Shown here piece after piece: positions 27,804-44,945 of a DNA stretch of 64,000 bases. Each line of letters opens with the position of its first letter. Position 1 is the first letter of the stretch. A program made the translations under genes and the position numbers. The DNA comes from Octopus vulgaris (Eukaryota), in the NCBI GenBank assembly GCA_951406725.2, contig OX597823.1, forward strand, positions 46,872,001 through 46,936,000, written 5' to 3'. The notes under the pieces were generated by a model. That model was given only the letters and a program-made list of their open reading frames with translations, did no database searches and had not been told where the DNA came from.

Positions 27804-28260
27804 TTACTTCATTTTATTTTTTTTTTTTTTGTTTAGTAATTTGATGTTCGGATATATTTCAGTTCTGTGTTGTTTAAACATATTGTGTTTGAGGCCGTCT
27901 GTTTTTTTTTTCGTAAGTTTGACTATTTCTGGTGTATAATTACTGCTATGTTTGTTGCGTTGTTTTCTAAGATTTTGTTTTATACATTCTTCTATAACTA
28001 TTTTGTTGAATGTATCAGCTACAGTCTCTCTGATGCTGATTTCGATGTTGTTGAATTCCGAAAACTTAGATTCTATGTCTTGATGGAACATTTTACCAGT
28101 TTGTTTTTTTAAAAAGTTTTTCTTCCTTTATTGACGAGCGAGTGTATTGTGATGATAATTTGTCGTAGTCCGAGTTGAAGAATTGTTTGGCAAGTGGTTT
28201 TGGTAGCTATATGTATGGTCCGGAAGGTGATTCATTGAGAACGTTCATATAGTCGGCTTG
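27804..28260 (-). pseudogene. Possible LINE ORF2 remnant (endonuclease-RT linker)
   Basis: K/N-rich ORF 27804-28091 and an SDH-like SDY upstream. Motif support is weak. Confidence 0.35.
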
Positions 28261-30499: not shown

Positions 30500-31700
30500 G
30501 CGACGGGCTTCTTTCAGTTCCCGTCTACCAAATCCACTCACAAGGCTTTGGTCGGCCCGAGGCTATAGTAGATGACACTTGCCCAAGGTGCCACGCAGTG
30601 GGACTGAACACGGAACCATGTGGTTGGTAAGCAAGCTACTTACCACACAGCCACTCCTACACCTACGCCTCGAAAATTTTGTCGCATTTTCCCCCACTGT
30701 CTTTGTAATATGGATCCTTGTGATTAGCCAATAAGTTGTTCATCACATATTTAAAAGTAATCTTTTTCAGAATCACTAGGAGAATTTCAGAATTTTCCTC
30801 CTCAATGTGTTTTCTTATATCTAGTCCTACATGTTTACACACTCTTCAACCATGGCAACTGAGAAAGCAGTAAAGTTGCTACGCAGATACATGAAGCCCT
30901 CTCCACCCTGTGACAAGGCATTTATGAATTGCTTTAGGCCGGGTTTTGTATGCAGAAGAGGCAAAAGAACACTTTTCGGTCCAACCAAACTTTCTCAAAG
31001 GATCTGTTCCAGGTATCAGTGTACCCCTGCTTGGCCATTCTTTTTTAGATCAATGGAGGATTCTGGCTCTACTGTTCCACTCAAGAAAAAAAGAAGCTGT
31101 GTCGACTAGCTATTGTCCAACAACATGCAATATTACTTTCAAGTTGCTGTAAATCATCCAGTTGTGATCTTTGAATTTAATCTTGTGCAAGAGTGACAAT
31201 AAGTTTTCCTGATTCCTGAATCTTCACCTCTCAGTCCTTGCTATTTACGTCTGGTCCATGAACAAGTCGCAATGCAGTTGCGAGATGTGGATGATCAATG
31301 TTTCCCCCCACTCTTTGAACTGTGTCCTTGTACCTTGCATGAGCAAAAGTAGCAGTCATCACTGTGATTTTTAGGTTCGCCCCATATCGTTAGAACCCCC
31401 AAAATGAAATGACTTCTTTGTACATTTTGTCCATTGTCTTAGTCCTTCAACATAAATTGAGCAGGCCTTATGAGGAGCCCACTTCGTATCTTGGTCTCCC
31501 AATTTCACACCAAAGCAAGCATAATAAGATATTTTGACAAGTTCAGTAATGATTTTCTGACGCTTCTTAGTCATAAAGTCGCCATAAATGTACCAAAAGT
31601 TACCCGGGGTTTGCTGCACATCTAGATGACATCCATTCTTCATAAAACGCGGAATGTCTGTAAGGGAACGAGGTAGGGACATTTTTTAACAGGTTTCATT
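29690..31700 (-). mobile_element. Decayed CMC Chapaev3-like DNA transposon, interrupted by a SINE
   Basis: YYACFGVKLGDQDTKWAPHKAC...LRQW at the N-terminus, NHSDDCYFC, and MSIKVHFLHAHLDFLSENLGDV...QGKRFHQ...NMMADYC at the C-terminus. May extend to about 32198. Confidence 0.8.
30229..30668 (-). mobile_element. SINE family A, full length, nested in the Chapaev3-like transposase
   Basis: Near-consensus copy splitting the transposase fragments. Confidence 0.92.
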
Positions 31701-33174: not shown

Positions 33175-33584
33175 CACGTCGCGATGTTTATAACAGCTAC
33201 TGTTTATAACTCGCTCTAAGATTTATTATTGTTTGTTTACACTTTTTCGATATCAATGTCTGTACGATACTGGAAAAAGGATATGTATTTGTGAAGGGAA
33301 CCTACTTTTCATCGACAACTGTGATTGTCACACGCCGATGACGGGTCAATACCCAGAAACTCAAGTCCGTGTGTATCATAAGTTGAAGACGGGAAGGATG
33401 GCTTCCCTTTGCAAATACTGATAGGGCACAGAAAGTGTGTCTATAGCCAGCTGGAGGAGCTGTCCTCCTGGAGCTACAAACTACAGTAGCATCCACCCTT
33501 AGGGGTTAGCCATATTTAAATGGCAAATATACGTCACGATGTGTTGCAGTTACTGTTTATAACTCGCTCTAAGATTTATTATTG
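33175..33584 (+). mobile_element. Element bounded by about 55-bp direct repeats with an internal HHR; pLTR-like partial tandem
   Basis: tactgtttataactcgctctaagatttattattg occurs twice about 353 bp apart. HHR at 33329-33373. Confidence 0.65.
33329..33373 (+). ncRNA. Type-I hammerhead ribozyme, slightly decayed
   Basis: CACACG-CCGATGA-CGGGT-caat-ACCCA-GAAA-CTCAAG-TC-CGTGTG; 6-bp helix I. Confidence 0.8.
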
Positions 33585-42230: not shown

Positions 42231-44945
42231 TTAGGGTTATGACTTTCCAGAAACTAATAATCCTATACTGTAATTCGATGGGAAACTAATAAGTATTTTG
42301 CTTTATTTCAAAGAAACGTCACCCCCAACTTAAATCGATCACCACTTTTGATCCAAATCATGCAAAATTCTAGGCTGGTTCATAACTCCTGCTCAAGTTT
42401 TTACTAAACTTGGTGCGCTGACTCAATGCAATGCAGAAATAATAAATCTGAAATTTCAGCTTTCTAGTTGAAGTAGTTTCGTAGTTATGGGCTTTTAAAT
42501 CTATAATCACTAAATGGCACTAGATTCTCACTTCACTATTTCGGCTGCCAAAATCCTTGTAAACGCAAGAGAGATGTAGAATAAAAATGTATTTATACAT
42601 TTTAAAGATTACTGAATTGAAATTGCTCTATGCAAAGGTTCAAATCTGGGTTGTTTTAAGACAGGCCACTGCAAGCATTCGATAACATACAAAAGTAGAA
42701 ACAATAAATATTTTTAACTTCCTAGGTTTCATTCCAATTTTAAATAACTGTATAAGAAAAAGAGCGCTGAAATTTAGCAAACTTTTTAACATAACAAAGA
42801 ATTATGTTTTGTTAGATAAAATAAATCGAAGCTCAAGTTACTCCTTCTTTTTACAAACATCATAAATATCTTAAAGGCACTTAATTGTCCGTTCTGCATT
42901 CTGATTTGTTCTGAGAATTTCCAGTTTTGGTGGTTCTCGACTCCAAAAGTTTTTTTATGGAGTTCAATGCTTTTTTATGAATTTGTAGGCTACCACATAA
43001 CTTCTGATAATTATGTGTATTGAAGAAAAAAATCTGCCCAGTTGTAAGAGATGAATCGACAAACATTGAGAAGCAATACTTTTTTCTCTGGTAGAAAAGT
43101 AAATGCCAAAAGAGCTAGTATTGCTCGAGAATTCCATCTTGCATTACTTAAGTTGGGTATTTTTTGTAACTTTGTAGTAGGAAATTTTCCGGTTTCTTCA
43201 AAGAAACGAAAAGTTCTGGTCAAATGAAATAGAAATTTCATGTCACCTCGCCACCCTGCTGATTCAGTAATCTTTTCTTCACCATTGTTGAAACCAGCCT
43301 GGGGTTTCTCGTAATTACTTAGAAGCTCTAGGATGAATGTATTTTCAATCCTGGGGGATGACTTTTTTCTCCAAGTTCGTTATCCAATACAACACGAAGA
43401 ACTCTATCAAGGATACGATGCTGACAACCAATAAATTGCGGTTCTTTCAAACCCTTTTGAGCAAATAGTCTTTGCAACTTAATGACAGTGCCATTTCTTT
43501 CCCAGTGTTCACACTCGTTGTATCAGCGACAATCATCTATTCACAGTTTCATAAATGGTATTCATCTAAAACAGATGTTATTCCTTTGACAACAGTATCG
43601 GCTTTTCCGTTTGATAATTGGAGTGCTTCTAACTTAAATTCTCCCTATTCATTCTTTAAAACTAGCACTTGATATTCTTGGTCATTAATACCTTTACTAT
43701 CAAAATAAAATTACCAGTTTCTAAATGAAGTGTTTTCTTCATTTTCCTTTTTAGTTTAACAGCTTCTTTGATAGTCGATGTGTAAATAACAGATTGGGAA
43801 GGAGTCTCGTTATTGATCCCATCTTGAGATAATTGTCGACAAACTGCTTTTTGGGTTGATAGCTTGGAAGATATTATTAACTTGGTTGCAGTCCCAGTTT
43901 TGCTATACTTCCTCCTTGTTTGTGTGGATTCTTCATCTGATTTTTCGGACCCTTGATATTGACTTTCAGTCTCTGCTTCAGACGTTGACGATGACACTGG
44001 AGTTGCTCTGGTTGAAGTTGGCATTAAGGACACTTATCTTTTTTTGGATGGATACGTAGTTTTGGAATTGGCTGCCTTTTCAGTTCCATACCCAACTTGT
44101 CCCTTGCTTTCAATTTACAGATAATATAACCTTATATCCTCACTGTACAACCATTCACCGTTTTCCTTTGTGATGTCACAAAGTCCTTTCAATGAATCGT
44201 ATTTTCCTCGTTTTACACATTTATCGTAGTTATTCAGCACTTTTTCTACAATTGCTTGTACATTTTGAATTTATAAATATGGGAAATTTAAGTTCTTTCG
44301 CCATAAAAAAAGTTACTTCTTTCGAAATTACCTTTGTCCTTTCTTTCCTTCCTTTAATGGTACCTCCAAGGAACAGGTAGCGAGCGACAATTTGAAGTTT
44401 TATTGGTATACTACAGTTGTTTTCCAAAGAATGCTCTTCTAGAGGAACAGGTCTTCTTTTCCTATGTGAGTCTTGAAATTACACGAGATTCTTTGTCCAG
44501 ATTTTTTGTTTCTTTGAGTGACACAAGCACTTCTCTTATGAGACATTATTTTAGATACTGTCTTTGGATAGTTGCACAAGCCTGATATTCTGAAAAACAG
44601 TTAATATAGTCAGAGTTTTTAGCGTCAAAGAAATAAAAAAGGAGAGAAAGAAGATATTTCCTAAAGTGGGGCCCAAGTGGTAACAAATTTGAGATGTACT
44701 GCTTCTGCTTTGCATTAAGTCAGCATACCAACTCTGGTAAAAAATGGTGTAGGCATTATGAACACCACCCCTAAAATTTTCCATGATTCGAGTCAAAAGT
44801 GGTGTTAAATTTCTACAGTTGGGAGCGATATATTTTTTTTAAAATTTAAAATAAAGGTTATTTTCCCAACTAACATAAAATTGTTCATCGACTTATGAAA
44901 CAGAATATTGTTTACTTGCCCCAAATCCAAAAGTCATAGCCCCAA
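42231..44945 (-). mobile_element. Decayed DNA transposon with TIRs, hATm-like
   Basis: TIR ttagggttatgacttt / aaagtcatagccccaa in TA-rich flanks. Fragmented transposase on the minus strand with VADTTSVNTGK, IGCQHRILDR and IPNLSNARWNSRA motifs. Confidence 0.75.

Follow-up and report, generated by a model that had tools for sequence, protein, structure and literature searches.

The window, the whole 64,000-nucleotide stretch of Octopus vulgaris DNA analysed here, contains one copy of a dispersed repeat with a hammerhead ribozyme motif. The features of this copy, with the basis for each, are as follows.

33176–33187, plus strand: 5′ remnant of a preceding unit (unit positions 338–349), where the 5′-truncated insertion starts (11/12 identity to 33531–33542)
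33188–33193, plus strand: 6-nt junction block in place of the expected 4 nt, matching unit positions 11–16 (sequence)
33194–33546, plus strand: one complete 353-bp retrozyme monomer of subfamily A1, with 6 differences from the A1 consensus (repeat, tree and consensus)
33285–33418, plus strand: long predicted stem with the hammerhead at its tip, pairing 33285–33300 with 33403–33418 around inner helices (minimum free energy fold; two-sided changes in helices 4–6)
33315–33317, plus strand: tentative, approximate transcription start at about unit positions 122–124 (joins of ORF1-like elements to older copies)
33329–33373, plus strand: type I hammerhead motif, comprising helix I, core CCGAUGA, helix II with C-A at 10.1–11.1, GAAA and helix III (sequence, scan and compensatory changes)
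33336, plus strand: U4C, the C at position 4 of the core, a fixed state of subfamilies A1, A2 and C (consensus comparison)
33342–33355, plus strand: helix II, including C-A at 10.1–11.1 (sequence)
33363, plus strand: private G-to-A change breaking the helix III palindrome (the A1 consensus has G)
33540, plus strand: unit position 347, the second of the two fixed points at which 3′ ends of the family lie, although this copy does not end there (exact position of 46 of 179 outer 3′ ends)
33547–33584, plus strand: 3′ tail (unit positions 1–38), the downstream direct repeat and the other fixed end, abutting an AT-rich flank (3′ ends of the family)

The original prediction described a unit of about 350 bp, bounded by direct repeats and terminally redundant by about 55 bp. 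The unit is as described, with a complete monomer of 353 bp, but the redundancy is shorter than claimed. The strict repeat spans only 38 bp (33194–33231 versus 33547–33584, 37/38 identical, period 353; an alternative listing gives 46 nt at 91%), and a value near 55 bp holds only loosely, when the rearranged 5′ remnant is counted, which lies beyond a block of 6 versus 4 nt. The 6-nt block is likely a short templated jump at the 5′ junction. The window copy amounts to about 1.15 units, and across the family the unit period is 352–353 bp, with GC content under 50%. This copy is the simplest insertion form, consisting of a 5′ remnant, one unit, a tail and an AT-rich flank. No target-site duplication was found at its junctions, nor any LTR-interior structure, and no open reading frame of 100 amino acids lies over the unit. 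The 5′ junction with the insertion was found in three of the four sequencing runs examined, one of which may be the source, and no empty site for the window insertion was found. Elsewhere in the window, three non-repetitive open frames on the minus strand (31371–31685, 43011–44033 and 27804–28127) resemble transposon remnants by eye and have no Pfam match.

Most of the hammerhead reads as it was first described. Helix I has the claimed 6 bp (CACACG at 33329–33334 with CGUGUG at 33368–33373), the GUC site is present, with a predicted cut after C33367, and the core, CCGAUGA at 33335–33341, carries the claimed C at position 4. The GGGU/ACCC helix II is also present (33343–33346 with 33351–33354), but the claim had passed over the C33342–A33355 mismatch (10.1–11.1) that precedes it. 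The GAAA of the core lies at 33356–33359 and helix III, ACUCAAGU, at 33359–33366; helix III is indeed one CpG-type change from a palindrome, with an A private to this copy where the subfamily consensus has G. When the window was scanned with a relaxed type I descriptor, this hammerhead was the sole plus-strand match. The Rfam hammerhead models gave no match in the window at gathering score, and four weak, unrelated matches appeared when E was allowed up to 10. Taken by itself, the 64-nt hammerhead folded no better than shuffles (z −0.43). Predicted homoduplex energy is −12.1 kcal/mol for the family palindrome ACUCGAGU versus −3.0 for the window copy. Judged against the consensuses, U4C in the window copy is a subfamily trait and not damage, and the broken palindrome is private decay of this copy. 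With only one hammerhead and a palindrome that is broken, the window copy is predicted to be a dead end and is likely inert.

The family to which this copy belongs is large. A DNA search of the 2.8-Gb genome returned 77 matches at 91–98% identity from 40 scored of 3,619 candidates, and the tail motif has 1,028 exact matches genome-wide, implying more than 1,000 copies. The pattern CCGATGA-N8-22-GAAACTCGAGTC had 369 exact matches genome-wide, its CTGATGA version 279 and versions with other N7 letters 648, all three counts including a few rows of other families; a reversed-control pattern gave no matches for either the core patterns or the tail motif, so the motif is not explained by chance. Head-to-tail arrays of nine and five units have a hammerhead in every unit (9/9 and 5/5). 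Copies with two or more hammerheads occur at loci L061, L062 and L035 and in many arrays of subfamily D, whereas the window copy has only one. In the five-unit array at L062:4071–5821, units 1 and 3 are identical and units 2 and 4 nearly so; these alternating variants could reflect either a dimeric template or DNA-level duplication. Some insertions (L129/L134, L102/L103, L063 and L010/L064) lie within duplicated segments or in overlapping sequence.

The arrangement of these copies bears on what kind of element this is. The direct repeats could have been a one-off local duplication, but a dispersed family with arrays was found instead. The original prediction left the choice between a retrozyme and a pLTR-like element to an alignment of genomic copies. 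Tandem arrays and permuted more-than-unit copies were found, which supports a retrozyme, and no ORF adjoins the unit, as it would in a pLTR. The pLTR half of the label did not hold: tblastn with a 781-aa protein of a Penelope-like element (PLE) gave no match in the window, and a PLE protein match was present at only 4 of 154 loci (L001–L154), each time as a separate neighbouring element. The lack of an adjoining ORF and the presence of another unit upstream in arrays and partial tandems argue against identity as a pLTR.

On the features that can be tested in sequence, the element is an animal non-LTR retrozyme. Such retrozymes are described as non-coding repeats of 150–450 bp, with families of 350–390 bp in mussel and 353 nt in axolotl (PMC7229834). 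The octopus family matches that description in its size, low GC content, type I hammerhead, 6-bp helix I, short helix II, occurrence as dimers to multimers, and strongly self-paired predicted RNA. It differs from the retrozymes described there in that most copies are dispersed partial tandems with inverted arms, and in that the core has U4C and a 10.1–11.1 mismatch in several subfamilies. Plant LTR retrozymes, in contrast, have a type III hammerhead within LTRs and a 4-bp target-site duplication, where this family has a type I hammerhead and the window copy has no such duplication. In open-access text, whose supplements may list C4 variants, we found no report of this family or of a fixed U4C in animal repeats.

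Insertion anatomy suggests how the family moves. We examined 116 insertions at loci picked by similarity or pattern, not at random, with duplicate and overlapping loci dropped by hand. Outer 3′ ends (n=179) cluster at unit 347, where 46 fall exactly, and at unit 35–41; 86 lie within unit 30–50, 33 of them at position 37. More than half of the insertions (63/116) are two-armed, with inverted, 5′-truncated arms and both 3′ ends outward. Where both ends are of a fixed type, 47 of 50 insertions combine one 347 end with one tail end (p 4e-11), and the tail of about 43 nt is on one end only. The microsatellite (TA)4 is found after 49 of the 86 tail ends and after 49 of the 72 ends at 347 (57–68%), compared with a background of 7.6%.

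These features are also those described for EN+ PLEs, which show 5′ truncation, partial tandems, an inverted 5′ copy, a tail of 30–40 bp on one end and a bias towards microsatellites (10.1101/2021.04.23.441226; PMC4209133). A short palindromic helix III is described as a dimer-dependent design, and the EN+ PLE hammerhead is predicted to need a dimer, as is the one here (PMC4209133). Compared with EN+ PLEs, the retrozyme unit lacks an ORF, its hammerhead is of canonical and not minimal size, and its tail is about 43 nt. By analogy, the family was likely mobilised by Penelope-like enzymes. Mobilisation of retrozymes by PLEs has been proposed before (PMC7229834; 10.64898/2026.07.22.740005). Li, Clavereau and Pollet (2026) likewise describe co-occurrence with intact PLEs and the presence of monomers, dimers and multimers, but their link in Xenopus is similarity to pLTRs, whereas ours is insertion anatomy, with no similarity to the two PLE families examined (10.64898/2026.07.22.740005).

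The same anatomy would be expected of a solo pLTR, the 5′-truncated end of an autonomous PLE, and pLTRs with a type I hammerhead and a palindromic helix III are known (PMC4209133). However, the upstream neighbour in arrays and partial tandems is another unit and not an ORF, the window has no PLE protein match, and the two intact PLE families have different, minimal hammerheads. This explanation is already largely refuted, and we regard it as very improbable. Satellite DNA spread by DNA-level recombination, with the ribozyme as a fossil, could account for the arrays, and unequal crossing-over could produce the alternating variants at L062. Most insertions are nevertheless dispersed and 5′-truncated, with fixed 3′ ends and microsatellite targets, and compensatory changes indicate selection on the RNA fold, so that a satellite origin is barely credible. 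A retrozyme moved by PLE enzymes is the reading we prefer.

Potential partners for the retrozyme are present in the genome. Two intact PLE families that encode a reverse transcriptase (RT) and a GIY-YIG nuclease came from a scan for GIY-YIG, in which 150 of 6,136 candidates were scored, and from a protein search, in which 71 of 25,451 were. The first is intact and young, with a protein of 781 aa, and its ends lie directly against (TA)n, some with a tail of about 32 nt and some without; the second is intact, with a 6.17-kb unit and proteins that are 99% identical. In both, the RT-EN linker is cysteine-rich, a feature reported for Neptune and Nematis (10.1101/2021.04.23.441226). No sequence was shared between the unit and either of these two families, terminal alignments being no better than shuffles, and the case for PLE mobilisation therefore rests on insertion anatomy. 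A resemblance between tails, seen by eye, was rejected as no better than shuffles.

The intact PLE families carry hammerheads that are minimal and different from that of the retrozyme. For the second family and its relatives (e.g., L225:3501 and L235–L264), the minimal hammerhead has 11,451 exact pattern matches, and 77 of the first 100 have C at position 4. The PLE minimal hammerhead also has C4 in 18 of 19 upstream motifs in L197–L224. In the 3′ region of the 781-aa family (L185–L194), a degenerate hammerhead-like motif of the U3-A8 type was read by eye, and the same region contains what we take to be repeated CCAAT- and CRE-like boxes and one TATA-like box. Hammerhead-like motifs with a CCGANGA core were also seen at L159:199 (with a 37-bp helix I), L064:456, L188 (minus strand, 6218) and L191:195.

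The RNA fold of the unit is conserved. The 353-nt window unit folds better than shuffled sequences (z −5.34, with 0 of 100 shuffles as good). We compared 20 copies, hand-picked to span subfamilies, using a 96-pair structure that is an RNAalifold consensus edited by hand to contain the active hammerhead and one tail helix. In this structure 95.1% of cells were paired and 21 of 96 pairs changed on both sides; none of 500 shuffles scored as high, and slid controls were 40–48% paired, these fold scores being inflated by the relatedness of the copies and by a structure derived from the same alignment. One such change is in helix II, where pair 10.2–11.2 shifts from G-C to A-U in 7 of 20 rows. Circular folds gave z −4.6 to −6.9 in four of five copies, with one old copy weak (z −1.5), and one of eight flank controls reached a circular z of −3.4 (window 30501–30853, 15 shuffles). 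The minus strand of the unit folds almost as well as the plus strand. The eight subfamily consensuses differ at 106 of their 353 positions, yet position 4 is the single variable one among the 14 core positions, and helix I is invariant. The compensatory changes support a conserved RNA fold and suggest selection acting on it.

Subfamily history shows that position 4 has changed more than once. Subfamilies were ordered by a tree of 131 rows, with the root placed on E because of its age, and by divergence from consensus. The resulting order is E, O and A1, followed by A2, C, B and B2, and D. Divergence was 8.7% in E, 5.0% in O, 2.8% in B, 2.6% in B2 and 0.9% in D, all of which have U4, and 3.5% in A1 (the subfamily of the window copy), 2.4% in C and 1.6% in A2, which have C4. 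The canonical core CUGANGA...GAAA...UH is present in the five U4 subfamilies, and C4 in 30 of 32 A1 rows. Homologues lacking CTGATGA had been named as a point that would count against the hammerhead; both older and younger subfamilies carry CTGANGA, so this point does not apply. Topology tests on 33 of the 131 rows, with column 4 removed and with groups named after the first tree was seen, rejected trees that held C4 rows apart from U4 rows (p-AU 8e-5) or grouped D with O and E (p-AU 0.009), and did not reject B plus D as a single clade (p-AU 0.23). From these tests we infer a single origin of C4, followed by one or two reversions. As read from the tree and consensuses, C4 is fixed in three subfamilies and the younger subfamilies have reverted to U4, a reversion that would be mutationally easy because it is a CpG transition.

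Changes in the adjoining helix accompanied this history. Over time, pair 10.1–11.1 went from C-A to C-U and U-U, and then to A-U in B2 and G-C in D. The youngest subfamily, D, combines a fully canonical core with more multimers than any other. Among the first 100 matches listed, head-to-tail hammerhead pairs were present in 15 of 41 for D and 4 of 75 for C4 subfamilies (p 3e-5), and in 2 of 24 insertions for B; pattern decay explains a less than twofold part of this excess, and the D share is confounded with youth, with the collapse of old arrays a possible contributor. In work on natural core variants, U4C is described as lowering activity considerably in vitro yet allowing viroid infectivity, and a U10.1–U11.1 mismatch as natural and tolerated (PMC3088659). 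Low activity is reported for CUGA mutants when a type III hammerhead was scanned by mutation (PMC9901934). Both deviations seem to be tolerated here as well, but unlike the variants described in PMC3088659, they occur together, were fixed in a lineage that has hundreds of copies in the genome, and were then reverted.

Arms of the insertions offer a view of the template. Of 159 arms, 108 extend across the cut site and just 3 begin within unit 168–182, most loci in this count having been chosen for containing a hammerhead. Because arms traverse the cut site with no pile-up of 5′ ends there (3/159), a cut linear monomer was apparently not the usual template. Circles and uncut linear multimers would account equally well for arms that pass the cut site, and we favour circles because subfamily D, with its canonical core, has more multimers. 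A step at the cut site in RNA runs was rejected as evidence. Assembled contigs of four presumed RNA runs cover the unit but not unique flank, and contigs show neither ends nor levels; the step was discarded because its profile and its ratio to a neighbouring repeat resemble those of four DNA or unlabelled runs.

The family could instead be a non-autonomous PLE-type element copied from uncut linear multimers, with the hammerhead serving as a recognition structure or rare cutter and no circle formed. This would suit the spread of three subfamilies with the poorly active U4C (PMC3088659) and a 10.1–11.1 mismatch, the dominance of C4 among the minimal hammerheads of one intact PLE family, and the report of cutting in only one of nine Xenopus dimers (10.64898/2026.07.22.740005). 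Against it, the other core positions and the palindrome are unchanged in seven or all of the eight consensuses, and D has more multimers, which is opposite to the prediction for a cut linear template. We consider copying from uncut multimers unlikely.

Overall, the window very probably contains a dispersed, slightly more-than-unit copy of a 353-bp non-coding family, with RNA predicted to cut itself through a type I hammerhead and likely written into AT-rich DNA by a PLE reverse transcriptase and GIY-YIG nuclease. For such a retrozyme, master copies of two or more units would be transcribed, possibly from a start near unit 123, and two hammerheads would pair via the helix III palindrome and then cut. 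The monomers would likely be ligated to circles. A PLE enzyme would be primed by both strands of the nicked DNA, at unit 347 and at unit ~37–41, and would then travel round the template until it stopped at a random point. With C4 and the 10.1–11.1 mismatch both present in the lineage (A1, A2 and C), cutting was likely weak, and it likely recovered in B2 and D.

A broader reading is plausible without being our expectation, namely that the tuning of a ribozyme within a single retrozyme lineage is preserved in the family as a fossil record. A weakened master, with U4C and an open 10.1–11.1 pair, would have seeded hundreds of mostly single-unit insertions, its descendants would have repaired the core, and the best repaired would now write multimers round the circle. 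CCGANGA cores would then form a large class of animal hammerheads missed by CUGANGA-based searches. If this is true, cutting rate sets circle yield and insertion length, and CCGANGA hammerheads number thousands in this genome, including in an intact PLE.

The movement of animal retrozymes, and its need for ribozyme cutting, is still argued mostly from co-occurrence. The octopus family kept spreading while a normally fixed ribozyme letter changed and was later restored, and it provides a natural allele series on one background (U4/C-A, C4/C-A, C4/C-U or U-U, and U4/U-U, A-U or G-C). Since the alleles are dated and have a genomic read-out in multimer share, the role of cutting could be tested with few transcripts. 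The family is also a warning that hammerheads in PLE-rich genomes are undercounted when search descriptors insist on CUGANGA.

Sequence around the copies was also surveyed. Following the flanks outwards into shared sequence revealed nothing beyond stretches of the unit left unaligned, segmental duplicates, other repeats and three ORF1-like joins. At L040, L051 and L057, diverged zinc-knuckle ORF1-like elements ending in AATAAAGA are joined to older copies at about unit 122–124. Further hammerhead families at L044, L045, L125 and L154 also contain GAAACTCGAGTC, and have a different helix II and no similarity to the unit.
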